Shown piece by piece: positions 7,606 through 62,633 of a stretch of DNA of 64,000 bases. The notes beneath the pieces were generated by a model. The model was not told where the DNA came from. It did no database searches and saw nothing but the letters and a program-made list of their open reading frames with translations. The DNA comes from an uncultured Nitrospiraceae bacterium (lineage in GTDB: Bacteria; Nitrospirota; Nitrospiria; Nitrospirales; Nitrospiraceae): NCBI GenBank assembly GCA_963706325.1, contig CAVPLT010000001.1, forward strand, positions 832,001 to 896,000, read 5' to 3'. Position 1 is the stretch's first letter; every line of letters starts with the position of its first letter. Both the position numbers and the translations under genes were made by a program.

Positions 7606-7980
7606 ATGGGATGCTCTTCTTCAAGCCGTAGGCCGCATCGTCGAGGATTTGGGCCAGGTGAAAAGGGAGGCGTCCATCTTCCCGTTCTGAGCGAATGAAT
7701 CAGCAGGGGACGCAACCCGCTCGTACAGGTCCTTCCAGGGCGAAGTCTCTTGCGAGCCCGCGCCACATAGCCGGTCATACCTCGAAGTGACCTCTCATTT
7801 TTTGTTGCCAATCTTCACGGGCCGAAGCTCAACTCAATAGAGCCTGCACTCTTCTGTCCGATTTATGGTTTTCCCTGACAGGGAAGTCCGAAGGTCAGGA
7901 CAGGTTCCCGGCATAATTTCAACGGAATGCTATAGTTGATACAGACAAAATGGCGTCGAACGGGGCTTTTTGGTGGTCGA

Positions 7981-9045
7981 ATGATGGCTCGGACACACAT
8001 CCAGCGGCGAGATCGGTCACGTAGGGTCGCCTCGGTCCCGGATTGGGCAAATTGGAGTGATGACCAGCTCCTCGATCTGCGCATGTGTGATCTGCATGTG
8101 CGATTGGAAGGCAGCTTTTACGAGAGGCCTATTGCCCAGCTTCAGCGTGAATTGACCGCCAGGAGACTGCTATTCCAGCCGTACGTCTGGATCTCGGACG
8201 AATGGTTCACTCCGGACGGCGTGCCTGGCATTGCCGTGCCCTTCTATCTTGCACATCCCCGATTGGCGAAATTGGAAGCGAGCCAAATGTTGGAGGTTGA
8301 GGGCGGCACCATGGACTGGTGCATGCGCATCTTGCGACACGAGGCCGGCCATGCCATTGAAAATGCGTACCTATTGCGTCGTCGGCGCCGCCGACAGAAA
8401 CTTTTTGGGCGATCTTCGCAGCCGTATCCAACGTATTACACCCCGCGCCCCTATAGCCGGAGCTTTGTGCGTCATTTGGATGTCTGGTATGCCCAGAGCC
8501 ATCCCGATGAAGACTTCGCGGAGACATTCGCCGTGTGGCTCGATCCACATTCACTCTGGAAGGAGCGCTACCGCGAATGGCCGGTGATGAAAAAACTGGA
8601 GTTTATGGAGCGGCTCATGGGTGAACTGGCCGGAGCAACACCGATTGTGACGGGGCGACAGCAACTGGACCCATTGCCGGGCATTTACAAAACGCTGCGT
8701 GACCATTATGAGGAAAAGCGGAAGCACTATGGGATCGGTCGGGCGCCGTCGTACGACGCAGATTTGAAGAAGTTGTTCTCCGACGCGCCGGGCCATGTCA
8801 AAAACCAGACGGCCGCGGAATTTCTTCGTCGAACCAGAAAAGAAATACGCCGGCGAGTTGCGGAGTGGACGGGTGAATATCACTACACGATCGATCAGGT
8901 TTTAGAAGGTATGATCGACCGATGTCAGGCGTTGAAACTGCACCTGACTGTCCAGAAAGACCAAGCCAAGTTGGATTTTGCGATTCTTCTGACGGTGCAG
9001 ACCATGAACTATCTTCACACCGGCCGACATAAGGTGGCGTTATGA
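7981..9045 (+). CDS. Putative zinc-binding metallopeptidase (zincin)
   Basis: HEAGH (HExxH) plus downstream HPDEDFAETFA. Confidence 0.8.
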   Translation: MMARTHIQRRDRSRRVASVPDWANWSDDQLLDLRMCDLHVRLEGSFYERPIAQLQRELTARRLLFQPYVWISDEWFTPDGVPGIAVPFYLAHPRLAKLEASQMLEVEGGTMDWCMRILRHEAGHAIENAYLLRRRRRRQKLFGRSSQPYPTYYTPRPYSRSFVRHLDVWYAQSHPDEDFAETFAVWLDPHSLWKERYREWPVMKKLEFMERLMGELAGATPIVTGRQQLDPLPGIYKTLRDHYEEKRKHYGIGRAPSYDADLKKLFSDAPGHVKNQTAAEFLRRTRKEIRRRVAEWTGEYHYTIDQVLEGMIDRCQALKLHLTVQKDQAKLDFAILLTVQTMNYLHTGRHKVAL

Positions 9046-10064
9046 GACGACTGCGTATTCTCGTGTTGATGCACAAAGACCTCGTCCCGCCGGAGCAGTT
9101 GACCGGGCAGGATCTCGAAGTGGCGGCCTGGAAGACGGAGTACGACGTGGTTTCTACGTTGCGCAAGCTGGGCCACGACGTGCAGGCCCTCGGCGTGAAG
9201 AGCGATTTGGAAGTGATCCGCGCGGCCGTGGAGGAGTGGAAGCCGCAGATTGCCTTCAATCTACTGGAAGAGTTCGATGGCATGGCGGTCTACGATCAGA
9301 ACGTGGTGTCCTATCTCGAATTAATGCGCATTCCCTACACCGGGTGCAACCCGCGCGGCCTCATGCTGGCGCGGGACAAGGCGCTGGCCAAGCAGGTCAT
9401 GTCGTACCATCGCATTCCCTATCCGGAATTTATGGTGGTACCGCTGCACCGCATGGTTCGCCGGCCTAAATATTTGCCCTTTCCATTAATTGTGAAGTCG
9501 ATCAGCGAAGAGGCGTCCCTGGGGATTTCACAAGCCTCCATCGTGGAGGATGATGAAAAGCTGCGGGAGCGAGTCAAATTTATCCATGACAATGTCGGCA
9601 CAGGAGCCTTGATCGAGCGGTACATCGAAGGACGAGAGCTCTATGTCGGCGTCATGGGGAATGCGCATCTGCAAGTCTTTCCGGTGTGGGAATTGGTGAT
9701 GGATAAGATGCCTGACGAGGCGAAGCGGATCGCGACCGAGCGCGTCAAATGGAGTCGCAAATATCAAGAGAAATATGGCATCCGCTCCTGTGAAGCGAGA
9801 AATTTGCCGGAGGGGGTCGTTGACCATATTCAACACCTGGCCAAGCGCGTTTACCGCGCGTTGGGGCTCAGCGGGTATGCCCGGATCGACATGCGGATGG
9901 ATAAAGACGGCGTCGTATATGTCTTGGAGGCCAATCCCAATCCCCAAATCGCCACCGGGGAAGATTTTGCCGACTCCGCTGAAAAGGCGAATCTCGCCTA
10001 CAAAGATCTGCTGCAGGAATTGCTGCATGTCGGGTTGCGGTGGCGCCCGGCCCAAGCCGCCTAG
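9042..10064 (+). CDS. D-Ala-D-Ala-ligase-like ATP-grasp enzyme (non-canonical)
   Basis: IPYTG, DKALAK, ASLGI, ERYIEGRE, GYARIDMR, EANPNP; ATGA overlap with the peptidase. Confidence 0.85.
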   Translation: MRRLRILVLMHKDLVPPEQLTGQDLEVAAWKTEYDVVSTLRKLGHDVQALGVKSDLEVIRAAVEEWKPQIAFNLLEEFDGMAVYDQNVVSYLELMRIPYTGCNPRGLMLARDKALAKQVMSYHRIPYPEFMVVPLHRMVRRPKYLPFPLIVKSISEEASLGISQASIVEDDEKLRERVKFIHDNVGTGALIERYIEGRELYVGVMGNAHLQVFPVWELVMDKMPDEAKRIATERVKWSRKYQEKYGIRSCEARNLPEGVVDHIQHLAKRVYRALGLSGYARIDMRMDKDGVVYVLEANPNPQIATGEDFADSAEKANLAYKDLLQELLHVGLRWRPAQAA

Positions 10065-14328: not shown

Positions 14329-14502
14329 ACCGCACCTTATCACATCCGCCGTCTGTCCCCGTCAAGGGACGACTAGGATGATTGCTGGCCGTATGGGGAG
14401 CGGCCCGCTCGCCGCGCTGGGAGCCGCGAATGCGCATTGCTTCGGTTGCTTTCACGTTTTCCCTATGGTAGCTTCGCCGACTCATGTGGGGAGAGGTGTG
14501 TC

Positions 14503-15708
14503 ATGCCGACGGGTGAGCTGCGTCTCAACGCCGAACAGTACTTGATGGATACCTATACGCGCCAGCCGATTTCGATCGTGCGCGGTCGGGGCACCAAGGT
14601 CTATGACCTGGAAGGACGCGAGTACGTCGATTTTGTGGCCGGCATTGCCGTGAATTTGCTGGGGCATGGGCATCCTGATTTGGTGTTGGCCATTCAGAAA
14701 CAGGTGCGGCAGCTGATCCACACATCGAATCTGTATTTTACTGAACCACAGGTACAGTTGGCCAAGATGCTGGTCGAGCACTCGTTTGCGCAGAAAGTCT
14801 TTTTTTGCAACAGCGGCGCGGAAGCGAATGAAGCGGCGATCAAACTGGCCCGGAAATATTCCTTCGATAAGTACGGCGCCGATCGGCACGACATCATCAC
14901 GATGAAAAATTCCTTTCACGGGCGCACGATGGCCACGTTGACGGCAACGGGTCAGGAAAAAGTGCAGAAGGGCTTTGCCCCGCTGATGCCGGGATTTTCT
15001 TATGTCGAGTTCAACGATCTCACGGAAGTCGGGCGAGCCATGACGCCAAAAACCGCCGCGGTGATGCTGGAGCCCATTCAGGCGGAGGGGGGAGTCTATG
15101 TCGCGGATCGAGGCTATTTGCAGGGATTGCGGGAGTTGTGTCGGGAGCGCGATGTGCTCCTCATTTTCGACGAGGTGCAGACGGGCATGGGCCGGACCGG
15201 CACGCTCTTCTGCTACGAACAGTTCGGCATGCAGCCGGATATCATGACTTTAGCGAAGGGGCTCGGAGGCGGTGTGCCGATCGGGGCCTGTCTCGCCACA
15301 GACGTTGTGGCACGGACGTTTTCTCCCGGAACTCACGCGTCGACGTTCGGCGGTAATCCTTTGGCCTGCGCCGCAGGCCTCGCCGTGCTACGAGTGCTCT
15401 TGCATGGAAAGATCCTCGAGAAGAGCCGACGGGCCGGTGAAAGTTTAGCGAAGGGGTTGGCGGCTCTCAAAGAGCGGCATCGTCTTGTGAAAGACGTGCG
15501 CGGTTTAGGTTTGTTGCAGGCTATTGAATTGGACATCGACGGGAGAGCTGTGGTTGCCGATTGTCTCGCCCGCGGGATATTGATCAACTGCACCGGCGAT
15601 CATGTCCTGCGTTTTGTTCCGCCGCTGATTATCACGGAGCCGGAGATTGCCTGCTTGATGAACGCGCTCACTCAGATTTTTAGTCAACGAACTACTTCAA
15701 CCCATTAA
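14503..15708 (+). CDS. argD: Acetylornithine aminotransferase
   Basis: NSGAEANE, SFHGRT, DEVQTG, AKGLGGG, HASTFGGN. Confidence 0.93.
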   Translation: MPTGELRLNAEQYLMDTYTRQPISIVRGRGTKVYDLEGREYVDFVAGIAVNLLGHGHPDLVLAIQKQVRQLIHTSNLYFTEPQVQLAKMLVEHSFAQKVFFCNSGAEANEAAIKLARKYSFDKYGADRHDIITMKNSFHGRTMATLTATGQEKVQKGFAPLMPGFSYVEFNDLTEVGRAMTPKTAAVMLEPIQAEGGVYVADRGYLQGLRELCRERDVLLIFDEVQTGMGRTGTLFCYEQFGMQPDIMTLAKGLGGGVPIGACLATDVVARTFSPGTHASTFGGNPLACAAGLAVLRVLLHGKILEKSRRAGESLAKGLAALKERHRLVKDVRGLGLLQAIELDIDGRAVVADCLARGILINCTGDHVLRFVPPLIITEPEIACLMNALTQIFSQRTTSTH

Positions 15709-15723
15709 CCCTTAGGGGCGCAT

Positions 15724-16707
15724 ATGTCGCGGCGTCCTCGTCAAGCCACAACCAAGGCCGGTTTCGGGAAGGATTTCCTGGAACTGCTCTCGATTCCCAG
15801 CGCAGAGCTGACGGCGTTACTCCGTCTAGCCGCACAGCTCAAAGTGAAGCAACGTCGTGGGATGCTGCATCCTCTGTTGCCGGGGCGTATGTTGGGTCTT
15901 CTGTTTCAGAAGCCCTCGACCCGCACGAGGGTGTCCTTCGAGGCTGGGATGAATCAGCTTGGGGGGCAGGCCATGGTGTTGCCCATGGGCGATATTCAGT
16001 TGTCCCGCGGTGAGAGTGTGGCCGATACCGCGCGTGTCTTATCGCGATATCTGGACGCGATCGTGGTGCGTACCTTTGACCATGCCATTGTCGAGGAATG
16101 GGCCCGTGAGGCGACCATTCCGGTGATCAATGGCCTCACGGATCTGAATCACCCGTGCCAGGCGCTCTCCGATCTGTTGACCATTCAGGAAAAAAGAGGG
16201 CGGCTGAAGGGAGTCAAGATTGCCTATGTCGGCGATGGCAACAATGTGACGAATTCGCTGATCGAGGCCGCGGCAAAAATGGGGATGACGATCGCCGTAG
16301 GCTGCCCGCCCGGCTATCAGCCGGACCAACACATCGTGGATCTGGCTCGTGAGGAAGCCCAGCGGACCGGGGCGGTGATTGAGATCGGGGCCGATCCGCT
16401 CGTGGCGGTCAAGGATGCCGATGTGGTCTATACCGATGTGTGGATCAGTATGGGACGCGAGCGAGAGCAGGCCAGGCGGCTCAAAACCTTGGCGCCCTAT
16501 CAACTGAACGAGCGATTGCTGAAACGAGCGAAGCCGGGTGCGCTGGTGATGCATTGTCTGCCGGCCCATCGCGGCGAGGAGATCAGCGCCGAAGTGCTGG
16601 ATGGCCCGCAGTCGGTGGTGCTGGATCAGGCCGAAAATCGACTGCACATGCAGAAGGCCATTCTGGTGAGACTTTTGGCCAAGAAAAAGGCAACCAAGAA
16701 GCCGTAA
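15724..16707 (+). CDS. argF: Ornithine carbamoyltransferase
   Basis: STRTR, HPCQ, SMG, HCLP. Confidence 0.95.
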
Positions 16708-16732
16708 ACAGTTCACGTTGTTGAGGAGTCGC

Positions 16733-17953
16733 ATGAGTCGGTCATCGTATAAAAAAGTGGTGCTGGCCTATTCAGGAGGATTGGATACCTCCGTGATTTT
16801 GAAGTGGTTGGAAGAGGTGTACGACTGCACGGTGATCGCATTTTGCGCGGACCTGGGGCAGGGAGAAGATCTGAAGGCCATCAAAAAGAAGGCGCAGTCC
16901 CTGGGCGTGAAAAAAGTCTATGTGGAGGATCTTCGCGAGGTGTTCGTGAAAGACCATGTGTTCCCCATGTTGCGAGGGAATGCGATCTATGAAGGCAGCT
17001 ACCTGCTGGGCACGTCGATCGCCCGTCCGCTCATTGCGCGGCGCCAAATTGAAATTGCCGCCAACGAAGGCGCTGAGGCGGTATGTCACGGCGCGACCGG
17101 CAAGGGCAACGATCAAGTCCGTTTCGAGCTGACCTACATGGCGCTGCATCCGCAGATCAAGATTATCGCGCCTTGGCGGGAATGGACCATGCGTTCGCGC
17201 CGCGAATTGATCGAGTATGCGGAGCAGCACGGGATTCCAGTGACCGCCACCAAAGCGAAGCCCTACAGCATGGACATGAATTTGTTCCACACGAGTTATG
17301 AGGGCGGCATTCTCGAGGATCCCTGGGCGGCTCCGCCCGAAGAGATTTTTGTGATGTCGGTCTCGCCGGAGCGGGCGCCGAACAAGGCGCGGGAAGTCGA
17401 AATTGAGTATGTCGCGGGCGATCCGGTGGCGGTGGACGGCAAAAAGATGAGCCCGGCGACGTTATTGGCCCGCCTGAACGAGTTGGGCGGCGAGCATGGT
17501 GTCGGGCGGGTTGATCTCGTGGAAAATCGCTATGTCGGCATGAAATCACGCGGGGTGTACGAAACTCCGGGCGGCACGATTCTTCATGCCGCCCATCGAG
17601 GATTGGAGTCCCTGACGATGGATCGGGAAGTCCTGCATCTGCGGGATAGTCTCATTCCGCGGTATGCCGAGCTGATTTACTACGGATACTGGTATGCGCC
17701 TGAACGGGAAATGCTTCAGGTGGCCCTTGATGAAGCTCAGCGGGATGTGACGGGCACGGTTAGAGTGAAGCTCTACAAAGGGAGCTGCACCGTGGTGGGA
17801 CGAAAATCTCCGCGCTCACTCTATCGGCTGGATATGGCCACTTTCGAAGAGGACGATGTCTATCGACAGAAGGATGCGGAAGGCTTTATTCGTTTGAATG
17901 CCCTCCGACTGGCGATTCGAGCGCAGCGAAACAAGAAGCGATCCCGAAAGTGA
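16733..17953 (+). CDS. argG: Argininosuccinate synthase
   Basis: [30 protein letters not shown]. Confidence 0.97.
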
Positions 17954-19407
17954 TGGCTAGGTCGAAAGTCGGCGCCGGACGCGCGCGTAAGTCTTCTCGA
18001 TCCACTCAAGGAACCGCTCGTGCATTGCCCAAAGGGAAGGCCTGGGGCGGCCGGTTTGCTGAGCAAACCGATCGTCTGGTAGAGCAGTTCACCTCCTCGT
18101 TGGCCTACGACCAACGGTTGTATCCCTATGATATCCAGGGCAGCGTCGCACACTGTAAAACGCTCGAACGAGCAGGAGTCTTCACGGCTCGCGAGTCGGC
18201 CGGGTTGGTGCGCGGATTGCAGACTGTGAAGGCAGAGCTGGATGGAGGGCGATTTCATTTCTCGCCGCAAGATGAAGACATACATATGGCGATTGAACGC
18301 CGGCTGACCGAACTAATCGGCCCGCTGGGTGGGAAGTTGCACACCGGGCGAAGCCGCAACGACCAGGTGGCGCTGGACTTGCGTTTGTTTTTGCGAGACG
18401 TGTTATCGACCGTGATGGGGCAGATCCAAGAGTTTCGGCGGGTGTTGGTGGCGCAGGCGCGCGCGCATCTGGATGTCGTCATGCCAGGCTACACGCACTT
18501 GCAGCGCGCTCAGCCGGTCTTGTTGGCCCATCACTTCTTGGCGTATGTTGAAATGTTGGATCGGGATCGGGGACGCCTCCATGATTGCCGGGAACGGCTT
18601 AACGTGATGCCGTTAGGGTCCGGGGCGTTGGCAGGGTCAAACTATCCAGTCGACCGGCGATACACAGCTGCACTGCTGGCGTTTCCCGCGATCACTCAGA
18701 ATAGTCTGGATGCCGTGTCCGATCGCGACGGCGTGGTTGAAGCGCTGAGCGCGTTGTCCTTGATCATGATGCACCTTTCGCGTCTGAGCGAAGAGCTGAT
18801 TCTCTGGGCCTCGCAAGAGTTCCACTACGTGGATTTGCCCGACACCTTCTGTACCGGCAGTAGCATGATGCCGCAAAAAAAGAATCCCGACGTACCGGAG
18901 TTGGTCCGTGGAAAGACGGGGCGGGTGTATGGTCACCTGATGGGCACGTTAACCCTCCTCAAGGGCCTACCCCTGAGTTACAATCGCGATCTGCAGGAAG
19001 ATAAGGAAGCGCTCTTCGACGCTGTGGACACGACGCAGCAATCGCTGGCTCTCTGCACCGAATTGATTCGACGATTGGTCGTCAATCAGGCGGTTCTTGC
19101 TGAGGCTGCCGAGGGCGGTGGCATGCTCGCGACGGAACTCGCGGATTACCTTGTAAAGAAAGGGGTCCCTTTCCGAGAGGCCCATTCCATTACCGGAAAT
19201 ATTGTGCGATCCTCACTTGAGCGCCATCGACCGCTTCAGCAGTTTACGGTGGCGGAGTTGCGAGTCTTTTCGCGGCATTTCGACCAAGATGTGCTGGAGT
19301 GCCTTACCGTGCAGGGGGCGATCGATCGCAAGCGCCAAATCGGAGGCACGGCGCGACGTCTCGTCGAGGCGCGTATCAAGGAGCTTGAGAAAGCGTTGAA
19401 GGGATGA
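17953..19407 (+). CDS. argH: Argininosuccinate lyase
   Basis: WGGRF, HTGRSRNDQ, GSSMMPQKKNPD. Confidence 0.97.
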   Translation: MARSKVGAGRARKSSRSTQGTARALPKGKAWGGRFAEQTDRLVEQFTSSLAYDQRLYPYDIQGSVAHCKTLERAGVFTARESAGLVRGLQTVKAELDGGRFHFSPQDEDIHMAIERRLTELIGPLGGKLHTGRSRNDQVALDLRLFLRDVLSTVMGQIQEFRRVLVAQARAHLDVVMPGYTHLQRAQPVLLAHHFLAYVEMLDRDRGRLHDCRERLNVMPLGSGALAGSNYPVDRRYTAALLAFPAITQNSLDAVSDRDGVVEALSALSLIMMHLSRLSEELILWASQEFHYVDLPDTFCTGSSMMPQKKNPDVPELVRGKTGRVYGHLMGTLTLLKGLPLSYNRDLQEDKEALFDAVDTTQQSLALCTELIRRLVVNQAVLAEAAEGGGMLATELADYLVKKGVPFREAHSITGNIVRSSLERHRPLQQFTVAELRVFSRHFDQDVLECLTVQGAIDRKRQIGGTARRLVEARIKELEKALKG

Positions 19408-28131: not shown

Positions 28132-30765
28132 ATGCCTGATCCATTGATTCTTTCCCTGGAGGAGAGTCGCGATCGGCGTCTCGTCGGCGGCAAGGCGGCC
28201 GGCTTAGCAAAACTGATTGGTGCCGGCTTTGCGGTGCCGCGAGGATTTTGCGTGACGACGGCCCTGTATCGGCATTGCCTCGAAGCGAGTGGGATTGATG
28301 CGGCGGAGGCGTGGAAAAAGGTACGGCATTCTTCCGAAGCACAGCGAATTCAGGAGCAGGCACGCATTCGAGATGTGTTATTAGCGCAGCCCTGGCCGGC
28401 GGGATTCCAAGCCGATTTGAACCACCAATTGACGAATGTGGCTGACGACCCCTGGACGCGTTGGGCGGTGCGTTCTTCTGCGACCAATGAAGATGCGACC
28501 GAGGCGAGTGCCGCCGGGTTCTATCACACGGGACTCGGCCTGTCTCAGCCAGAGGTGCTCGATGCCATCCGCGACTGCTGGATCTCGTTGTGGTGCGCAC
28601 ACGTAGGTCCCTATCTACTGCGGTCTGGCGCGGACATGGTCTGTCCTGCCATGGCTGTGGTGGTTCAGCCAATGCTCGACGCGAAGGCGGCGGGCGTCGC
28701 CTACTCGATTCACCCAGTGACGGGGCGGACCTCCCAGGTTGCCATCAACGCCGTGCCTGGACTGGCATCCGCTCTTGTGAGCGGAGAAGTCACACCAGAC
28801 CAGTATGTGGTCGAGGTTGAAGGGGTATCTGCCCAGCCGCCGCGTATCCGGCGCCGGCTCGTGACCCGGAAGCTGCAGAAGTTGGTTGCGACTACGCAGG
28901 GCGTACGGCCGGAACCAATTCCGACCGCCGACGAACAGCAATCATCTCTCTCCGACGAACAACTCTTTGAACTTGCCAGGCTGTCGAAACTAATCGAAGC
29001 CGCATTTCAACAACCTGTCGATGTCGAATGGGTGTGGGATACCGAGCGGCTGTGGGTGCTGCAAGCGCGCCCGATCACGGCTGTGCGACCTCTCCGGACG
29101 CTGACGAACGATGAATGTGAGTGGACGCGGGCCAATTTCAAAGAAACTATGCCGGAATTGCCAAGCCCTCTGAGTATTTCCTTTCTTGAGCGCTTTATGG
29201 ACGAATACATACTCGCACCCTATCGGCGACTCGGTTGCACCATTCCCGAAGGACTTTCAGCGGTGCGAGTGTTGCGCGGACGTCCATACGTTAACGTGAC
29301 CCTGTTCTACTCGTTTGTCGTTCAGCTATACGGAAACCCGGCGTTTTTAACCGAGCAGATGGGTGGCGACCGCCTTACCGTGACTCCTCCTGTGCGGCCG
29401 CTCGGGCCGTTCGCTCTCCTCCGAGCGGGGTTTATCATGCTGCGGGAATGGCGCAGGGTAGCAAGGCAAGCGCCACTCAATTTCGCCATCATGAAACAGA
29501 TGTCGGAGAGGTACCGTTCCGATCACATCCAGCACCTGTCAGTACGGGACCTAACGGAGACACTCAACAATTTAGGCCAATGGCTTGACGACCATGAAGT
29601 CACCTTCGGGATCGTCGGTGGCGTGGCGCAGAGTCTCCAGGCCTTAGGAACGTTCCTGCCAGGGTGGCTTGGGCCGGACTGGCGGGAGTTACTCAATGCC
29701 TCCGTGCAAGGGCAGGGGAACGTGATTAGCGCACAGCAACTTGTGCGACTCGCCGAACTCGTAGAGGTTGCGCGGAGAGAGCCGGTAGTTCAACGATGGT
29801 TCTTAACGGAGGCCTGGTCGGCGCATCGTTTTCGAGAAACACTCGCGGGAACGGAGTTTCTGCGGTTGTTTGAACGCTACCTGCTGGATTATGGGCATAG
29901 GGCAGTCGGAGAATCTGATGTGATGTCTGTACGAATTGCGGAGCAGCCCGAAGCTATTTTGGCCGTGCTTCAGACACAAGTCCGGTCACATGAAACCGCC
30001 GCTCCCGCCGAGATTGTGGCGCGCCAGACGAAGCGGCGAGACGCAGCGATCGCAGAGATCACTCAGCGATTTGGCCGGTGCCGCTATCGGGGGATGATAT
30101 TTCGTTGGTGGTACAGGCGGCTTTGCCGATTTTGTGCCTTGCGAGAGGCCAACCGTCATCATCTTATGTACTATTCGACAGCCATGCGACATTTATTGCT
30201 CCGGCTGGGAGAGCGAATGGTGGACCAGGGCGCCATGGCCCACCGGGAGGATATATTTTTTCTCACGCTGGACGAACGCACGGCATTGGGACAGAGTTCA
30301 CAGTGCGACTGGCGTCAGTTGGTCCGGGATCGTCGCGAGGAACGGGCTCGTAACGAGGCCGTGCAGGTTCCCGACACGATTCGGGATTGGGATGAGACCG
30401 CCGACACTCAAAGCGGTCAGTTGATAGGCGTCGAAATAGACGGAGACTTGCGCGGCATTGCCATTAGCGCCGGGATAGCACGTGGTCCAGTACGGATCGT
30501 GCGGTTGGCTGCAGATTGGAAACGCGTGCAGGCGGGCGACATTCTGGTCGTGCCCGTGATCGATCCCGGCATGGCGCCACTCTTCGGCGTCGCGGCCGGT
30601 TTGGTCGCTGAGATGGGAGGCACGCTTTCGCACGGCGCCATCATCGCACGGGAGTATGGCCTTCCGGTCCTGGTCAATGTGCCCTATGCAACCAGCCTTT
30701 TGCGCGATGAGGAACGGGTCCAAATCACCAGTTCGACAGGCATAATCAAGCGGTTGGTCTCTTGA
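28132..30765 (+). CDS. PEP-utiliser/pyruvate-phosphate-dikinase-like phosphotransferase (rifampin phosphotransferase architecture)
   Basis: N-terminal GGKA/VRSSA/LQARPIT ATP-binding domain, large middle domain, C-terminal SHGAIIAREYGLP phospho-His domain. Confidence 0.85.
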   Translation: MPDPLILSLEESRDRRLVGGKAAGLAKLIGAGFAVPRGFCVTTALYRHCLEASGIDAAEAWKKVRHSSEAQRIQEQARIRDVLLAQPWPAGFQADLNHQLTNVADDPWTRWAVRSSATNEDATEASAAGFYHTGLGLSQPEVLDAIRDCWISLWCAHVGPYLLRSGADMVCPAMAVVVQPMLDAKAAGVAYSIHPVTGRTSQVAINAVPGLASALVSGEVTPDQYVVEVEGVSAQPPRIRRRLVTRKLQKLVATTQGVRPEPIPTADEQQSSLSDEQLFELARLSKLIEAAFQQPVDVEWVWDTERLWVLQARPITAVRPLRTLTNDECEWTRANFKETMPELPSPLSISFLERFMDEYILAPYRRLGCTIPEGLSAVRVLRGRPYVNVTLFYSFVVQLYGNPAFLTEQMGGDRLTVTPPVRPLGPFALLRAGFIMLREWRRVARQAPLNFAIMKQMSERYRSDHIQHLSVRDLTETLNNLGQWLDDHEVTFGIVGGVAQSLQALGTFLPGWLGPDWRELLNASVQGQGNVISAQQLVRLAELVEVARREPVVQRWFLTEAWSAHRFRETLAGTEFLRLFERYLLDYGHRAVGESDVMSVRIAEQPEAILAVLQTQVRSHETAAPAEIVARQTKRRDAAIAEITQRFGRCRYRGMIFRWWYRRLCRFCALREANRHHLMYYSTAMRHLLLRLGERMVDQGAMAHREDIFFLTLDERTALGQSSQCDWRQLVRDRREERARNEAVQVPDTIRDWDETADTQSGQLIGVEIDGDLRGIAISAGIARGPVRIVRLAADWKRVQAGDILVVPVIDPGMAPLFGVAAGLVAEMGGTLSHGAIIAREYGLPVLVNVPYATSLLRDEERVQITSSTGIIKRLVS

Positions 30766-54603: not shown

Positions 54604-55662
54604 ATGCGCATGCCAACCCCGCCCTGGCTCGATGACACCTCCCCCTACCTGACTGCGGCAGTTCCCGCGATCGGCGGCCGGATTCGCAGTTCACCGGAAG
54701 ATTTTCGTGTTGAGGAACGACCGCTCTACTTGCCCTGTGGCGAAGGCGAACACCTGTATATTCGGGTGACCAAGCGCGGTCTGTCCACTCCCGATCTGCT
54801 TCTCCGACTCTCTTCGCAGCTCCATGTCAGAGCGCAATCTATCGGCGTGGCCGGGCTGAAGGACGCCCAAGCCGTCACGACGCAGATGATTTCCTTGCAG
54901 GGGGTGAAGGCAGAGGCGGTAGCGGCCTTGTCTACCGACGAGCGTTTGCTGGCTCTGGACATATTGGGACGTCATCGCAACCGCCTCCGGAAGGGACACC
55001 ATGCCGGCAATCATTTCCGGCTGGTGATACGGGATGTCAGAGAGGGTGCGGAGGCGCACGTGAGACAGGTGTTCGATGAGTTACTGCGCCGGGGCGTGCC
55101 GAACTATTTCGGGCCTCAGCGACAAGGGAGGTCGGGAACGAATTTTCAATTGGGCGCCGAGTTGTTGCAGGATGCCGCGCGCCGCAACAAGATGAGCCGT
55201 GCCAAGCGTATCTGGTTCATGAACGCCTATCAATCTCACGTGTTCAATCAGATCGTGGCCAAACGGATCGCGAGCCTGGATCGCGTGTTGCTGGGTGACT
55301 GGGCCATGAAGATGGACAATGGGGCCTGTTTTCCCGTGGAACAACCCGAGGTGGAACAGCCGCGCGCGGACCGGTTTGAGATCAGCCCCACTGGGCCCCT
55401 CTTTGGTTCACGTGCACCGTGGGCCACGGGGTTCGCGGGGGAGATTGAACGGGCGGTGGTGGCTGACCTCGGAAGCACCCCGGAGTTATTGTCCCAGGCG
55501 GGGACCGAATGCGGATTCAGGGGTGAACGACGGGCGCTTAGAATCCGTCTCAATGAGCTCACCTGGTCGCTTGAAGGCTCTGTGTTGACTCTGGCCTTTT
55601 GGCTGCCCCCTGGGTCCTACGCTACCAGTGTGCTCCGGGAAGTGGTGAAGGCAAATTCCTAG
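54604..55662 (+). CDS. truD: tRNA pseudouridine(13) synthase
   Basis: PEDFRVEE, GLKDAQAVTTQ, PNYFGPQR, GSYATSVLRE. Confidence 0.95.
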   Translation: MRMPTPPWLDDTSPYLTAAVPAIGGRIRSSPEDFRVEERPLYLPCGEGEHLYIRVTKRGLSTPDLLLRLSSQLHVRAQSIGVAGLKDAQAVTTQMISLQGVKAEAVAALSTDERLLALDILGRHRNRLRKGHHAGNHFRLVIRDVREGAEAHVRQVFDELLRRGVPNYFGPQRQGRSGTNFQLGAELLQDAARRNKMSRAKRIWFMNAYQSHVFNQIVAKRIASLDRVLLGDWAMKMDNGACFPVEQPEVEQPRADRFEISPTGPLFGSRAPWATGFAGEIERAVVADLGSTPELLSQAGTECGFRGERRALRIRLNELTWSLEGSVLTLAFWLPPGSYATSVLREVVKANS

Positions 55663-55787
55663 CAGGATGCTGAAAAAGTCAGCCATCTGCGGGCTCGCCT
55701 CGTTCAGACCCTCAACGTAAAGCCAGAGTATACTCTTCAGGTCTTCACTCGCTGCGACCTAGCTGAACGGCCTTAGTAATCATCTGC
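55662..55787 (+). mobile_element. MITE-like repeat, short copy
   Basis: GCAGGATGCTGAAAAAGTC...TCAACGTA...CTCGCTGCG...CATCTGC. Confidence 0.7.
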
Positions 55788-55965
55788 GTGGCCACTCATG
55801 TGAAATTTTGAATCTTCTGACGATTACTTGAACCGCAAAACGCCTTTTCTCCACCAGGTGGGCTCTACGGATCATTTTTTCTTCCAAATGGTAGAATCTA
55901 CATAGTGCAACTCATCGCTTCCGGGCGCGTTTCTTTCCGAGGGGAAATTCACTTGAGGTTTATTT

Positions 55966-57210
55966 ATGACAGGATCGCAGGAAACGGTCTTTCTGCAGGG
56001 CCACATCATTGATTCGTTGATCCTGGCCAAAGTTCTGGACACCATCTTGATGATGGGCGGTAGTTTTGACCTGCAGGATGTGAACATCGGCGCGACCAGA
56101 GAGGCCGCCTCCAAGGCGCGGATCGTCGTGCAGGCGCCTTCCAGCCGTGTGCTGGGAGAGATTCTACGGGCCATCCAGCCCCATGGCGCTACCATCGAGC
56201 GCGAAGCCGATTGCCGATTTGAGCCCGCCCCGTCGCGGGGGGTGTTTCCTGAAGAGTTCTATGCCACGACGCATCTCCCGACTCAAATTCGTCTCGATGG
56301 CGAGTGGGTGAACGTGGAGAACATGGAAATGGACCTTGGCATCTGTGTGGATCCGGCCAAGGCCCGCGCTCGAACCGTTCCGATGGGTGCCGTGACCGCG
56401 GGAGATCTGATCGTGATTGGTCGAGACGGTATCAGGGTGACGCCACTTGTTCGTCCGGCCGAGCGCGATGTGTTTGGGTTCATGGAATCCGTGGTGTCCT
56501 CGGAGCGTCCGCATCAGCCGGTGATTGCCGATATCGCGAAGCGGATGCAGAAGTTACGCGAGTGGCATCGGGAGGGCCGCGCCGGGGCAAAGGTGCTGTT
56601 GGCAGGAGGTCCGGCAATCGTGCATGCGGGCGGCCGAGACGCATTGGCCTGGTTGATCGAAGCTGGCTACATTCAACTATTGTTTTGCGGTAATGCCCTC
56701 GCCGCGCATGACATGGAGGCGGGGCTGTATGGCACCTCGCTCGGTTACGGCTTGGCCGCCGGGCGCTCAGTGCCGCATGGGCATGAACATCATCTCAGGA
56801 CCATCAACCGGATTCGTGCCATCGGGAGCATTCAAGCGGCCGTGCGGTCGGGGTTCATAACCGATGGAATCATGGCGGCGTGCGTGCGGCGCGGGGTGAC
56901 AATGGTCATGGCGGGTACCATTCGCGACGACGGTCCGCTGCCCGGTGTGGTGACGGACTCGATGCAGGCCCAGCAGGCGATGCGGGCGGAAATCTACGGA
57001 GTCGGCCTCGCGCTGCTGGTGGCGTCCACGCTCCATGCGATTGCCACGGGTAATTTGCTACCGGCCGCCATCCCCACCGTCTGCGTTGATGTGAATCCGG
57101 CCGTTCCGACGAAACTGGCCGATCGTGGCAGCTTTCAAGCGGTTGGTCTCGTGATGGATGCCGCCTCGTTTCTCACGGAGCTCGCGCGTGAACTTGGGTG
57201 GCGCCCATGA
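55966..57210 (+). CDS. LOR/SDH-domain protein (TIGR00300-like), ornithine cyclodeaminase
   Basis: GHIIDS, FYATT, FGFM..VSSE, GPAIVH, GNALAAHD, IRDDGPLP, KLADRGS. Confidence 0.85.
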   Translation: MTGSQETVFLQGHIIDSLILAKVLDTILMMGGSFDLQDVNIGATREAASKARIVVQAPSSRVLGEILRAIQPHGATIEREADCRFEPAPSRGVFPEEFYATTHLPTQIRLDGEWVNVENMEMDLGICVDPAKARARTVPMGAVTAGDLIVIGRDGIRVTPLVRPAERDVFGFMESVVSSERPHQPVIADIAKRMQKLREWHREGRAGAKVLLAGGPAIVHAGGRDALAWLIEAGYIQLLFCGNALAAHDMEAGLYGTSLGYGLAAGRSVPHGHEHHLRTINRIRAIGSIQAAVRSGFITDGIMAACVRRGVTMVMAGTIRDDGPLPGVVTDSMQAQQAMRAEIYGVGLALLVASTLHAIATGNLLPAAIPTVCVDVNPAVPTKLADRGSFQAVGLVMDAASFLTELARELGWRP

Positions 57211-58007
57211 GTCGGCTCTTGGTCTGTCCGCCAGACTATTTTCGGATCAATTACGAAATCAATCCATGGATGCGACGCGCGAACGCGGTCGACTCGGCAC
57301 GCGCAATGAGTCAGTGGCACGCGCTGATGGACGTCTTATCTCAGGATGTCGGGGCTGGTATTGAGCAGATGCCGGCTGTCGAAGGTCTCCCTGATATGGT
57401 CTTTACGGCCAATGCGGGCGTGGTGGTCGGGCGTCGCGCCCTGGTAAGCCGGTTTCGTTACCCAGAGCGCCAACGAGAGGAAGTCCACTTCGAACGGTGG
57501 TTTCGCGAACAGAAGTACGAAGTGTTGACGATGGACAAGACCCTCTATTTTGAAGGGGCCGGTGACCTGTTGGGGTTTCAGGATGCGTGGTTCGGGGGAT
57601 ACCGGCAGCGGTCCGACATTCGAGCTTTTCCCAAGGTGGGTGACATGTTCCAGCGGGAAATTATTCCGCTCGAATTAATCGATCCCCGGTTCTATCATCT
57701 CGACACCTGCTTCTGTCCTTTGAGCGGTGGGGAGTTGCTCTACTTTCCGCCGGCGTTCGATGCGTACGGACAAGCGGCCATTGCTCAACGGATTCCAGAC
57801 ACTCGTCGGTTGACCGTGCCCGAGGACGAAGCTCTGCGGTTCGCCTGCAATGCGGTATGCATCGGCAAACACATCGTCATCCCAGCCGGTTGCCCTCGCA
57901 CGACGCAACTGCTGGAGGCGCGCGGTTACCGCACGTACGCCGTTCAGCTGGACGAATTTATGAAGTCCGGCGGCGCAGCCAAGTGTCTCACCCTGGCTCT
58001 TGATTGA
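57207..58007 (+). CDS. Amidinotransferase-family enzyme, arginine dihydrolase (ArgZ N-domain-like)
   Basis: INPWM, PDMVFTANAG, FEGAGD, FYHLDTCF, GGAAKCLTL. Confidence 0.85.
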   Translation: MSRLLVCPPDYFRINYEINPWMRRANAVDSARAMSQWHALMDVLSQDVGAGIEQMPAVEGLPDMVFTANAGVVVGRRALVSRFRYPERQREEVHFERWFREQKYEVLTMDKTLYFEGAGDLLGFQDAWFGGYRQRSDIRAFPKVGDMFQREIIPLELIDPRFYHLDTCFCPLSGGELLYFPPAFDAYGQAAIAQRIPDTRRLTVPEDEALRFACNAVCIGKHIVIPAGCPRTTQLLEARGYRTYAVQLDEFMKSGGAAKCLTLALD

Positions 58008-58026: not shown

Positions 58027-58383
58027 CTACCGTGAGCGAAAAAGAAACGACAGATAGAGACCCGCGATGGCGGTAGTCGTGAGCTCAATCGTGAGCAGCA
58101 AGCGACTGACGATGGCGTCTGGCTGCGGGGGCGAGAGAATGAAATGGAAGCCCAGGAATGCCGCCGGCTGTGAGGGAGGAGACTCCCACGGTGGCATCAG
58201 GAGAGAGACCACCAGCACCGTCACCATGCCGTAGAGAATGTTCAAGTTCAGTTGCTCGGTCGCCGACCTAATTTTTGTCGGCGCGGCGGCCGCTGGGATG
58301 TGTGATTCGAGCGCGGCGCCGCAATCGGTGCAGTACCGGTTGATCTCAGGAAGGGCACGTCCGCAGGAAGGGCAGGGTTTCAT
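58027..58383 (-). CDS. Zn-ribbon membrane protein
   Basis: CPSC..CTDC plus TM segments. Confidence 0.7.
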   Translation of the reverse strand: MKPCPSCGRALPEINRYCTDCGAALESHIPAAAAPTKIRSATEQLNLNILYGMVTVLVVSLLMPPWESPPSQPAAFLGFHFILSPPQPDAIVSRLLLTIELTTTAIAGLYLSFLFRSR

Positions 58384-58495: not shown

Positions 58496-58525
58496 TTGAC
58501 AGGTTTCAAAGCCCCTTCCTATAAT
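58496..58525 (+). promoter_or_regulatory. Consensus sigma70 promoter of gpsA-larB, probably leaderless
   Basis: TTGACA-N18-TATAAT, 8 nt before ATG58534. Confidence 0.7.
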
Positions 58526-58533
58526 CCGCGTCC

Positions 58534-59559
58534 ATGACGAGTTCATCCATTCAACGTGTGGCAGTCATCGGCGCCGGCGCCTGGGGAACGGCGTTGGCTC
58601 GGCACTTGGCCGAGAAGCAACTCTCAGTCAGACTGTGGGCCCACGAGCCTGAGGTCGCCCGGGCGATCCAAAGCCGGCGCGAAAACCAGCTGTTTTTACC
58701 CGGAATCTCGCTTCCACCGACCTTGTCTGCGACTAACAGCCTGGCGGAAGCCGTGGCGGGAGCCGATTGCCTGATCTTTGCCGTGCCTTCGCATGTTGCA
58801 AGGCCTGTTCTGGGACAGATCGCCCTGGTCCTTCCGAATCCGATCCCGTTGGTTAGTGCCACAAAAGGAATTGAAGAAGATACCCTTCAACTCGTGACGC
58901 AGGTCATGGAGGATATGCTCCCGGCCCATATGCAGGGGTCCTTACTGGTGTTGTCGGGACCGAGCTTTGCGACTGAGGTGAGTCGGGGGCGGCCGACGGC
59001 GCTTTGTCTCGCCGGGCAGAATGCGCAGCTCGTCAAGACGGTTCAGAGTCTCCTCATGACCCCCAAGTTCCGCGTGTATGCGGATGATGACCTGATCGGC
59101 GTGCAACTCGGCGGCGCGTTGAAAAACGTGATGGCGCTGGCAGCCGGCGTGGTTGACGGACTGGAACTCGGACATAATGCCCGTGCCGCACTCATAACCA
59201 GGGGATTGACCGAGATGGTTCGCCTCGGTGTAGCGATGGGCGCGGATGCGCGCACGTTTTACGGGCTGTCCGGGGTCGGCGATCTCATCCTCACCTGCAC
59301 CGGCCTGTTGAGTCGCAATCACTCGGTGGGGGTGCGATTAGGAAAGGGTGAGCGCCTCCAGACCATTCTTGCCGGCATGCAGGCGGTAGCGGAAGGCGTC
59401 CGGACGGCGAAAGCGGCTCTGGGACTTGCCCTGCGGTGCGGCGTAGACATGCCGATCGTGCGTGAAGTGCATGCAGTGCTCTTTGCCGACAAATCGTGCC
59501 GCCAGGCGGTCGGCGATCTCATGGAGCGAGTAGCCAAAGAGGAGAAAAGCCTGTCGTGA
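58534..59559 (+). CDS. gpsA: NAD(P)H-dependent glycerol-3-phosphate dehydrogenase
   Basis: GAGAWGTA, TKGIE, SGPSFA, GALKN, GDLILTC..SRN. Confidence 0.96.
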   Translation: MTSSSIQRVAVIGAGAWGTALARHLAEKQLSVRLWAHEPEVARAIQSRRENQLFLPGISLPPTLSATNSLAEAVAGADCLIFAVPSHVARPVLGQIALVLPNPIPLVSATKGIEEDTLQLVTQVMEDMLPAHMQGSLLVLSGPSFATEVSRGRPTALCLAGQNAQLVKTVQSLLMTPKFRVYADDDLIGVQLGGALKNVMALAAGVVDGLELGHNARAALITRGLTEMVRLGVAMGADARTFYGLSGVGDLILTCTGLLSRNHSVGVRLGKGERLQTILAGMQAVAEGVRTAKAALGLALRCGVDMPIVREVHAVLFADKSCRQAVGDLMERVAKEEKSLS

Positions 59560-60338
59560 ATCAAGATCAATTGCAGGCGTTACTCACCCAAGTTCAGCGT
59601 GGCGTCCTCGACGTGCCGGATGCGCTGCATCAGCTGCGGACCATGCCGTACGAAAGTTTGGGGTTCGCCTCGCTCGATCACCACCGAGCGCTTCGCCAGG
59701 GATTTCCGGAAGTGATTTTTTGCGAAGGGAAAACGGAACGTCAGGTCGTGGCCATTGCCAAGACGTTGCTCCTGAACACGAACTCGTTATTGGCCACGCG
59801 GGTGGAGCCGTCGGTCGCCCGGGCGCTGCTGCGTATCAGCAAGCGCGCGGTCTATCACGAGGCGGCGCGGGTGGTGGCGATCGCGCCCCCCAAGTTGGTG
59901 CGGCGCGGGTCGGTGTTGATCGTGACGGCCGGGACGGCCGATATCCCGGTGGCGGAAGAGGCGCGCGTGACCGCCGATGCTATGGGGAGCCGAACGGACA
60001 CCTTGTATGACGTGGGGGTGGCCGGCCTCCATCGTTTGCTCGGTCAACAGGATCGTTTGCATGAGGCTCGAGCCTTGGTGGTGGTGGCGGGGATGGATGG
60101 CGTGCTGCCGAGCGTCGTAGGCGGGCTCGTGCGACAGCCGGTGATTGCCGTGCCGACGAGTCGCGGCTATGGGGCGCACTTCGGCGGTTTAGCGGCATTA
60201 TTGACCATGTTGAATTCCTGCGCAGCGGGAGTCGGGGTGATGAATATCGACAACGGCTTCGGGGCCGGTTGCATGGCCCATCGGATCAATATGGTGGGGG
60301 AAGTAGAAGGTGCGGCTCCAACAGGCAAGAAAGATTGA
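59556..60338 (+). CDS. larB: Nickel-pincer cofactor biosynthesis protein LarB
   Basis: GFPEVIFCEGK, AGTAD, DVGVAG, PTSRGYG, NIDNGFG. Confidence 0.9.
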   Translation: MNQDQLQALLTQVQRGVLDVPDALHQLRTMPYESLGFASLDHHRALRQGFPEVIFCEGKTERQVVAIAKTLLLNTNSLLATRVEPSVARALLRISKRAVYHEAARVVAIAPPKLVRRGSVLIVTAGTADIPVAEEARVTADAMGSRTDTLYDVGVAGLHRLLGQQDRLHEARALVVVAGMDGVLPSVVGGLVRQPVIAVPTSRGYGAHFGGLAALLTMLNSCAAGVGVMNIDNGFGAGCMAHRINMVGEVEGAAPTGKKD

Positions 60339-60441: not shown

Positions 60442-60678
60442 GCAGGATGGTCAAAAGGGTCGTTTAGCGCGGCTGCGGCGATGTCAGGGAGCGGAGGCCA
60501 CAGCGTTCTTACCTACCCTGAGTCTTCCGGGACAGGCTCTTTTGCCCCTGTGCGGCACCCTGAGTCTCGGAGGTTCACGACGCGACGAATAAGGAGCGTC
60601 ACGCTTGTGAACGCCGCCGAGATGTGAGGCGGCAGTGTCTTCGCGAGAACAAAGCCGACGGCCTCTTCAATATCCTGC
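60442..60678 (-). mobile_element. MITE-like repeat, long variant with internal duplication
   Basis: TIRs GCAGGATGGTCAAAAG / CTTCAATATCCTGC; ACCCTGAGTCT direct repeat at 60515 and 60557. Confidence 0.75.
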
Positions 60679-61421: not shown

Positions 61422-62633
61422 GTGGTGAAGCACCTTCATTTCGACTGTTTCTCGGGCGTCAGCGGCGACATGATTTTGGGTGCGCTGGTGCATGCGGGCT
61501 TGCCGTTCAAGGACTTGGTACGCGGTCTTGCCCGGTTGCAAATCGAAGGGTTTCGTCTCACGCAGAAGTCGGTGGAACGCGGGGCTCTTTCGGCGATGAA
61601 AGTCGATGTGCTGATCGACAAAGGCTTTCGAGCTCCGTTGACGCTGGCGCAAATCAAACGGATTCTTCAGAAAAGCGGATTGCCTGCCGTCGTTAAAGAA
61701 CAAAGCCAGGCGGTGTTCGATCGATTGGCCGATGCCGAGGGAAAGGCCCACGGCGTTGAGCCGTCGAAGGTGCATTTTCACGAGGTAGGCGTCATCGATT
61801 CTTTCGTCGATGTCGTCGGCGGTGTCCTGGGTCTGCACCTGATGGGGATTCAGCGCGTGACGGCCTCCGCAATCAATGTGGGATCCGGTACCCTCACGTC
61901 AGCCCACGGTTCCTTGCCTGTGCCGGGACCGGCGGTCGCCGCGCTCGCTGTCGGACTTCCCATTTATGCTCAAGGCCCAGCACGTGAGCTCGCGACGCCG
62001 ACCGGCGTCGCATTGGTGCGTACCTTGGCTACAGAATTCGGTTCCTTGCCTCGAATGCAGGTGCGTCATGTTGGATATGGAGCCGGCACGGCCGATCCGG
62101 CTCAGTGGCCGAACGTGTTACGAGTCTTTGTCGGCGACGCAGCGGACAGGGAGGTCGGTTCAGTGGAGACGATCGTGGAACTTCAGACGAACATCGACGA
62201 CCTCAACCCGCAAGTCTACGAGACCGTGTTCGAGCGGGTGTTTGCGGCCGGCGCCGTGGATGTCACGCTCGCGCCCGTGATGATGAAAAAGGGTCGACCC
62301 GGCAATGTGTTGTCCGTACTGGCGCCTCGCGAGAAGGCCGAGGCCGTGTTAGCGGTGTTGTTCGCCGATACGACGGCATTGGGCATTCGGACCCAGGAGG
62401 TGCAGCGACGGGTCTTGCCGCGTCGGTTCACCTCGGTCCAAGTGGAGGGGCACGATGTTCGCATCAAATTGGCGGACCAGGAGCCGGGGCGCGTCAAGGC
62501 GTTACCTGAATACGAAGATTGCCGACGCATTGCGGAACAAAGCGGGCGTCCGGTGAAGGATATTCTCGAGACGGCGATGCGGATATATCGTCAGTCGCAA
62601 GACAAACGGCGAAGGGTCAAAGTGAGCAAGTGA
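61422..62633 (+). CDS. larC: Nickel insertion protein LarC
   Basis: DCFSGVSGDM, HFHEVG, AHG..PVP, TPTG, NIDD, MKKGRP, PEYED. Confidence 0.92.
   Translation: MVKHLHFDCFSGVSGDMILGALVHAGLPFKDLVRGLARLQIEGFRLTQKSVERGALSAMKVDVLIDKGFRAPLTLAQIKRILQKSGLPAVVKEQSQAVFDRLADAEGKAHGVEPSKVHFHEVGVIDSFVDVVGGVLGLHLMGIQRVTASAINVGSGTLTSAHGSLPVPGPAVAALAVGLPIYAQGPARELATPTGVALVRTLATEFGSLPRMQVRHVGYGAGTADPAQWPNVLRVFVGDAADREVGSVETIVELQTNIDDLNPQVYETVFERVFAAGAVDVTLAPVMMKKGRPGNVLSVLAPREKAEAVLAVLFADTTALGIRTQEVQRRVLPRRFTSVQVEGHDVRIKLADQEPGRVKALPEYEDCRRIAEQSGRPVKDILETAMRIYRQSQDKRRRVKVSK

Follow-up and report, generated by a model that had tools for sequence, protein, structure and literature searches.

An overlapping gene pair in Nitrospira predicted to degrade arginine through ornithine to proline

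Among described systems, the closest to the locus reported here are two cyanobacterial enzymes, AgrE of Anabaena (Alr4995; PDB 6LRF, 6LRG, and 6LRH) and ArgZ of Synechocystis (Sll1336; PDB 6JUY and 6JV0), each of which is one polypeptide with a guanidino hydrolase at its N-terminal end. AgrE is described as converting arginine to CO2, three ammonium, and proline, on which PutA then acts; this is regarded as the main pathway, with the ornithine-ammonia cycle as a side activity (Flores, 2021, PMC8262935). Ornithine cyclodeaminases of family TIGR00300 are described as nickel-pincer-dependent (Desguin, 2025, as cited in a passage of PMC13524815), the cofactor reported in them being nickel-pincer adenine dinucleotide (NPAD; same passage). 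Here we describe a locus in a stretch of 64,000 nucleotides (the window, to which all positions refer unless another contig is named) from an uncultured Nitrospiraceae bacterium (GenBank assembly GCA_963706325.1, contig CAVPLT010000001.1, positions 832,001 to 896,000), in which the same two catalytic modules are encoded by two genes, the cyclodeaminase gene (ocd) standing first and the hydrolase gene (adh) second, rather than by one fused gene with the hydrolase in front. Our reading, to which we give a probability of about 0.7, is that ocd and adh likely form an operon that degrades arginine to ornithine and ornithine to proline with a nickel-pincer cofactor, and that PutA then forms glutamate, nitrogen being salvaged.

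The ocd gene (414 aa) occupies positions 55966 to 57210 and adh (a stand-alone ArgZ-type guanidino hydrolase, predicted to be an arginine dihydrolase, 266 aa) positions 57207 to 58007, both on the plus strand with intact reading frames and each in one copy in the 4.2 Mb genome. They share the four bases ATGA at 57207 to 57210, the ATG of adh lying at 57207 to 57209 and the TGA of ocd at 57208 to 57210, an overlap that likely couples their translation. A putative Shine-Dalgarno-like element, GAGGT (55955 to 55959, plus strand), stands 6 nt 5′ of the ocd ATG, and the two-gene unit is closed 3′ of adh by a zinc-ribbon membrane protein gene on the minus strand (58027 to 58383; reading frame and Pfam). 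A promoter scan gave no sigma-70 match 5′ of ocd, and the same scan gave no credible terminator 3′ of adh. The original prediction, made from this DNA alone, had described a LOR/SDH gene overlapping a pentein hydrolase gene with five motifs, in the reverse order of the fused ArgZ/AgrE and in a host that might be a nitrifier. Overlap, motifs, and order are all as described, and both enzyme assignments are supported by the evidence given below; the host is a Nitrospira, the near homologues of the pair being so named and the query standing next to N. defluvii in both of our trees.

With 459.8 bits, the ocd protein exceeds the cut-off of 410.8 for TIGR00300, the family now described as nickel-pincer-dependent ornithine cyclodeaminase. 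It has the full three-domain set of LOR/SDH N-terminal (PF04455), ArgZ-like middle (PF21571), and Rossmann (PF21570) domains, and it aligns to the fused ArgZ model (NF052231) over model positions 286-692. Its PDB matches 3C2Q, 6LRF, and 6JUY have E values of 6e-95 to 2e-87, 3C2Q being the best in sequence. It is predicted to cyclize ornithine to proline, releasing a third NH3 in addition to the two that the hydrolase would release. With the described NPAD ornithine cyclodeaminases it shares the family score, the domain layout, and a genome that contains larB, larC, and larE, but it is coupled to a hydrolase gene, whereas four archaeal and 12 mostly acidobacterial relatives, in the sample of 80 loci described below, have no hydrolase nearby.

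The hydrolase carries INPWM at residue 18, PDMVFTANAG at 62, FEGAGD at 115, FYHLDTCFCPL at 162, and GGAAKC at 255, which place the site residues N19, D63, N69, R88, E116, R135, H164, D166, and C260. An alignment to ArgZ and AgrE had been proposed as a check, and in it the Cys-His-Glu set (C260, H164, and E116) and the dihydrolase Asn (N69) are all present; the catalytic roles of H164 and E116 we take to be those of the ArgZ-type His and Glu. N69 and C260 align with Asn71 and Cys264 of ArgZ, the residues changed in PDB mutants 6JUZ (N71S) and 6JV1 (C264S), where Cys264 as a mutated site is taken from the mutant titles, and Asn at the Asn71 site is described, in a passage of PMC10761123, as essential for dihydrolase activity. 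At 22 of 24 chosen site positions adh is identical to the named cyanobacterial ArgZ rows, and N19, N69, E116, H164, D166, and C260 are unchanged in all 57 aligned operon copies. The protein aligns to positions 6-269 of NF052231, and its PDB matches to the N-terminal domain of ArgZ/AgrE have E values of 2e-72 to 2e-65 as compared to 6e-15 or weaker for dimethylarginine dimethylaminohydrolases (DDAHs). Its structural model (mean predicted local distance difference test, pLDDT, 95.8) superimposes on ArgZ with a template modeling (TM) score of 0.96, a root-mean-square deviation of 1.1 Å, and 44% identity, and on the Pseudomonas aeruginosa DDAH (1H70) with 0.85, 2.4 Å, and 21%; in the structure ranking, places 1-13 are all ArgZ/AgrE chains, with DDAHs at TM 0.80-0.85. 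The adh enzyme is predicted to hydrolyze arginine twice, giving ornithine, CO2, and two NH3.

A canonical DDAH, by comparison, is ruled out as the identity of adh. The two have the same propeller fold and Cys-His-Glu arrangement, but P. aeruginosa 1H70 and human DDAH1 have Asp in place of N69 and Lys in place of D166, lack the N19-W21-M22 loop, and are only ~21% identical to adh, which scores 45.5 bits on the canonical model NF045658 (cut-off 450) and has a fold nearer to that of ArgZ. A clade of adh with canonical DDAHs, the grouping that would have spoken against the original prediction, is rejected by the approximately unbiased (AU) test (p=0.0014), and adh falls among the Asn-type hydrolases. 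In the five pair-bearing small genomes of the neighboring family (G025, G028, G031, G037, and G040) there is a second, DDAH-like paralogue of 26-30% identity, with Asp at position 69 in both copies examined (G031 and G037). ArgZ-type hydrolase domains are also seen without a cyclodeaminase in two long proteins, P0123 (874 aa) and P0139 (634 aa), the latter with PAS and histidine-kinase-type Pfam domains; these could be real fusions or assembly artifacts.

Structure prediction of an ocd-adh complex gave a median score of 0.49 (0.57, 0.49, and 0.00 in the three runs; best control 0.01), with a contact agreement of at least 0% and a partner pLDDT of at least 88. Among solved pairs, 116 of 157 attain the mark used for this score, as do 2 of 215 mismatched ones, but at 0.60 or below it is attained by just 18 solved pairs and both of the mismatched ones. 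The two proteins may form a complex, of which this is a weak indication explainable by their likeness to the solved AgrE/ArgZ structures.

The pair had been termed a split ArgZ. The trees instead point to two stand-alone enzymes that became paired independently, a pairing inherited across the Nitrospirales. The hydrolase tree has 84 rows (25 from Nitrospirota and Nitrospinota, 20 of 120 long forms, 24 of 150 representatives, and 15 others) and the unrooted cyclodeaminase tree has 57 (41 loci, 15 long forms, and the query, with P0272 dropped), both obtained by quick searches on subsets under LG+G4 with no mixture model. In the latter, ocd groups with the other ocd-adh operon copies (SH-aLRT, the Shimodaira-Hasegawa-like approximate likelihood ratio test, 99), and this clade lies apart from the fused forms, on the same side as four archaeal stand-alone enzymes. 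The AU test rejects an exclusive grouping with fused ArgZ in the case of the cyclodeaminase (p=0.0005) and is borderline in that of the hydrolase (p=0.035), and neither half reaches the cut-offs of NF052231 or NF052232. The best 150 hydrolase representatives, taken at 50% identity, include 132 of ≤330 aa and 5 of >550 aa, and stand-alone is the common state of this enzyme. Fission of ArgZ as the origin is rejected on these results. An occurrence outside the cyanobacteria is likewise not new in itself, as annotated fused ArgZ already exists among Verrucomicrobia records (Pedosphaera, Verrucomicrobiae). The two enzymes appear to have been coupled twice, once by fusion and once by operon, and this supports a shared pathway.

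The arrangement is conserved. In the genus, ocd and adh are adjacent and in the same order in 25 of 25 genomes (that of the window included), and because both order and adjacency are kept the arrangement is not a matter of chance. They are also adjacent in 6 of 16 relatives outside the genus. An even draw of 61 genomes of the family gave 53 with ocd, 52 with adh, and 50 with both, and in all 50 the two genes are adjacent, within ~270 nt of each other; the pair is near-core in the Nitrospiraceae. A wider sample, made up of the top-ranking 80 among 580 loci of the genome collection and biased to close relatives, has ocd followed by adh in 59, with none reversed and none fused. These comprise 53 of 55 loci of Nitrospirota (both misses being at contig ends), 3 of 5 of Actinomycetota, 1 of 2 of Nitrospinota, one of Methylomirabilales, and one that is unclassified. 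In three draft genomes a reading frame is broken, adh being in two frames in G023 (C2:31714-32512) and G061 (C200:1885-2701) and ocd having one TAG in G081 (C379), and these are likely errors of the assemblies.

The Nitrospinota deserve separate mention. The two copies tested nest within the Nitrospirales in the trees, which suggests that the pair may have moved laterally between Nitrospirota and Nitrospinota, the two phyla of nitrite oxidizers. In the phylum of the Nitrospinota-labeled genome G104, ocd is present in 8 of 81 genomes, with adh directly behind it in 6 of the 8, and three of these pairs are ~60% identical to the window protein. That the Nitrospinota labels are errors is disfavored by this search, as it gave none of the earlier genomes and just 8 positives in 81, and a real but patchy presence is favored. 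The Nitrospinota-labeled genomes (loci L117, L118, and L120 in the phylum of G104, and L096 and L098) have Nitrospirales-like copies (~60% identity) in low-GC surroundings, and three other such genomes have a more distant ocd-adh pair of 41-46% identity.

The genes for a nickel-pincer cofactor, which along with putA had been overlooked in the original prediction, are found 1.5-4.6 kb downstream of the pair. They are larB (59556 to 60338, plus strand; NF033503, 284.9 bits with a cut-off of 175), which probably starts at the GTG at 59556 within an open reading frame (ORF) listed from 59496, and larC, the nickel insertase (61422 to 62633, plus strand; TIGR00299, 194.5 with a cut-off of 90, and NF052512, 140.1 with a cut-off of 50), while larE is on another contig of the genome. 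The products of the three genes would supply the cofactor to ocd. Between the pair and larB is gpsA, a bystander encoding glycerol-3-phosphate dehydrogenase (58534 to 59559, plus strand; family model), which overlaps larB by GTGA. A putative sigma-70-type promoter, TTGACA-18-TATAAT (58496 to 58525, plus strand), matches at 12 of 12 bases in a scan where ~1 looser match is expected by chance in the region, and it ends 9 nt 5′ of the gpsA start. Hence gpsA and larB likely have their own transcript, separate from that of the pair, and the spacing suggests that it is leaderless or nearly so.

Proximity of the lar genes is modest evidence for the cofactor, and their co-occurrence with ocd is the stronger evidence. 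Of 16 relatives outside the genus, 13 have larB and none has LarA; among the 13, three have ocd only, six have a GSU2086-family gene only, three have both, and one, whose genome is 73% complete, has neither, while the three relatives without larB have neither gene. In 15 of 16 relatives, the presence or absence of larB agrees with that of at least one of ocd and a GSU2086-family gene, a count in which kin are not independent. The 99-100% complete genomes G025, G028, and G037 each gave ocd and neither of the other two candidate clients. From this profile ocd fits as a true nickel-pincer client and a second one is indicated, which is likely the GSU2086-family gene. In the host it lies outside the window (G000:C1:432895-433809; L125:4743-5837) with 447 bits versus a cut-off of 250; 32 of 41 relatives have it, as do 6 of the 7 in which larB occurs without ocd or LarA, and its product has a weak profile match (probability 25%, E 0.0008) to the Rossmann part of ocd. 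A CRISPR-associated CARF-family gene (TIGR02710) is located near it (L125:1429-2682; G000:C1 ~429.4-430.7 kb). The LarA-family racemase gene of the host (G000:C1:1079474-1080046) is patchy in the genus (15 of 24).

Proline formed by the pair would be oxidized to glutamate by PutA, for which the genome has, at another site, an ORF of PutA size that includes a proline dehydrogenase domain, and by this route the cell would recover all four nitrogens, together with reducing equivalents, from arginine that is scavenged or turned over. The Nitrospira pair resembles AgrE/ArgZ in its predicted steps from arginine to proline as well as in the putA gene of the genome. A PutA domain is present in 36 of 41 relatives, and G034, a complete genome and the only one of six in its genus to lack the pair, also lacks the PutA domain and has argG and larB (a single case). 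An arginase route was rejected, as the sole ureohydrolase of the genome scores as an agmatinase. Alternatively, the pair might make proline from surplus arginine for protein synthesis or osmoprotection, with ammonia released incidentally. Its near-core status in chemolithoautotrophs, even in genomes of 2.1-2.4 Mb, would agree with this, as would the stand-alone archaeal homologues on the same side of the tree, Methanocaldococcus jannaschii having this family and lacking proB. However, proB is present in 38 of the 41 relatives (32 of 32 near-complete ones), the host included, and the pair is therefore not needed for proline, biosynthesis by necessity being ruled out. In addition, making proline via arginine costs far more ATP, and PutA co-occurs with the pair. 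We regard this alternative as very improbable.

Storage of nitrogen is a further alternative, and the one favored by the original prediction. Here ArgF, ArgG, and ArgH would rebuild arginine from ornithine in an ornithine-ammonia cycle, with arginine as a store that is filled and drawn down. The genes argF, argG, and argH are indeed intact in the window, in an argD-argF-argG-argH biosynthesis cluster (14437 to 19407, plus strand; family models) that is ~37 kb away from the unit and outside it, and ornithine could be lost more readily from separate enzymes than from a channeled fusion. Nevertheless, argG is found in 40 of 41 relatives, including those without the pair, and its distance to the pair, kept at 36-40 kb within the genus, varies in the next family, where four complete genomes have it at 25, 83, 143, and ~1090 kb, such that the presence of these genes in the window is not evidence for a cycle. 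Carbamoyl-phosphate synthase was not identified by family. As a difference from the AgrE/ArgZ systems, no cyanophycin synthetase was found in the host (the best of 17 candidates has 133.7 bits versus a cut-off of 850) or in any of 61 family genomes in a search without positive control signal. Moreover, the hydrolase gene is coupled to that of an ornithine-draining enzyme, and the cycle is the side activity of the cyanobacterial pathway mentioned above. What stands of the cycle is the presence of its genes, which is true of nearly all relatives, and what does not is an arginine-rich store; a storage cycle is weakly supported and, as the main role of the pair, improbable. The role of the pathway of arginine degradation would be mainly nitrogen salvage rather than storage.

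Several observations weigh against the salvage of arginine nitrogen by the pair. The best NCBIfam model of adh, Arg_dihydro (NF052232), gives 284.8 bits, below the curated cut-off of 450 (the other operon copies score 234-291), and two site positions deviate from ArgZ, R84 (Tyr, Phe, or Leu in ArgZ) and R133 (Gly). A clade of adh with actinobacterial ‘dimethylargininases’ is compatible with the data (AU p=0.64), the constrained tree being better than the free quick tree, and the Asn and the loop are common to these actinobacterial proteins, which are located in nonribosomal peptide synthetase (NRPS) or other contexts. The hydrolase is also found without ocd in G026, G038, and G102, a point in favor of the storage cycle, and 21 of the 80 ocd loci have no hydrolase nearby. 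Among 35 Nitrospirota loci that have 6 kb of downstream flank, just 25 have larB and larC next to the pair, an opposite-strand gene and the perfect sigma-70 match stand between the pair and gpsA-larB, and the LarA-family and GSU2086-family genes are other possible clients of the cofactor. Of two sequencing runs listed, the RNA run, from one metatranscriptome, contains 0.11 of the words and gave a single 318-nt contig lying within ocd; this is all the RNA evidence, and it does not count as evidence of transcription or of an operon. Finally, no dedicated arginine transporter was identified in the host genome, where one APC permease is below all curated cut-offs and two SBP_bac_3 matches are not clear amino-acid binding proteins.

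The points that concern the hydrolase bear on yet another alternative, in which its substrate is a different guanidino compound, for instance methylated arginines released by protein turnover, or its product is citrulline, and the role of the operon is to salvage the compound concerned. Most public names of adh homologues are DDAH or amidinotransferase, a passage of PMC11659421 calls the wider family uncharacterized, and the Arg_dihydro score is just 38 bits above that on the actinobacterial dimethylargininase model (NF045659, 246.7). Proteins of the NF045659 type are, like adh, stand-alone with the same Asn, loop, and triad, and because three plasmid copies with this Asn adjoin NRPS or ligase genes, Asn alone leaves the substrate unfixed. 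On the other hand, adh is below the cut-off of NF045659 (300; true members have 387 and 432) with 35-42% identity, the clade with canonical DDAHs is rejected, and the Asn, the intact loop, and the TM score of 0.96 all argue for an ArgZ-type enzyme, while citrulline would not feed the partner enzyme ocd. Furthermore, the mycobacterial member Rv2323c, although annotated as DDAH, is described in a passage of PMC4569260 as required for growth on arginine and for the formation of proline from arginine. According to the same passage its neighbors are an ornithine aminotransferase and a permease, other actinobacterial copies having NRPS or ligase genes and adh having ocd. We consider a different substrate or product rather improbable, and arginine degradation to proline remains our preferred reading.

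The fate of the ammonia depends upon the host. The amoA gene was not found in the host genome (96% complete) or in that of N. defluvii by a search that was positive in 3 of 5 genomes tested, and because the host has no amoA the released ammonia could not fuel it directly. All three of the amoA-positive genomes have the pair, which thus occurs in comammox genomes. Two ORFs of ~1160 codons in the host match type II dimethyl sulfoxide reductases below the cut-off and would be nitrite oxidoreductase. A broader reading would have the Nitrospirales release ammonia from external arginine by a nickel-pincer-dependent pathway, comammox organisms growing on it as a source of both energy and nitrogen and nitrite oxidizers feeding the three ammonia to partner ammonia oxidizers, with the operon passed sideways to some Nitrospinota; this we think unlikely.

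Other features of the window were noted in passing. Intergenic repeats of ~100-120 bp lie at gene ends at ~55655-55780 (~9-16 matches in the genome) and ~60560-60670 (~11), and are possibly REP-like (repetitive extragenic palindromic) or MITE-like (miniature inverted-repeat transposable element) elements. At 7936-10064, a 340-aa D-Ala-D-Ala-ligase-like ATP-grasp gene, scoring below all cut-offs, overlaps with a 369-aa ORF for which NCBIfam gave no match, and at 28132-30765 there is an 877-aa phosphoenolpyruvate-synthase-like protein that resembles rifamycin phosphotransferase and PigC/RedH ligases, also below all cut-offs.

Both enzyme types and the chemistry of the pathway are already known, and one primary ArgZ/AgrE paper reportedly already states that arginine dihydrolases are widespread in bacteria; it is the two-gene arrangement and the Nitrospira host that have not been met in the literature searched. 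Among the open-access papers searched, none was found on the pair or on its near-core presence in Nitrospiraceae or Nitrospira, where it is usually annotated as a DDAH and a hypothetical or LOR/SDH protein. In the relevant passages of a survey on how nitrifiers use organic nitrogen, arginine comes up just in connection with polyamine synthesis (PMC10753782), and in those of a comammox guanidine study arginine was tested just on the purified guanidinase (PMC11410670). The separable halves suit the study of ornithine channeling versus release, which is named as uninvestigated in PMC8262935. The locus also raises the question of whether nitrifiers, including comammox, can take ammonia from an amino acid without heterotrophs, and this is testable in existing cultures. 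If the use of external arginine were true, nitrification would have a further direct organic fuel besides urea, cyanate, and guanidine. If the ocd-adh operon degrades arginine as we propose, nitrite oxidizers and comammox would gain a route from arginine to three ammonia and glutamate, and the nickel-pincer cofactor would become part of the nitrogen metabolism of the Nitrospiraceae.

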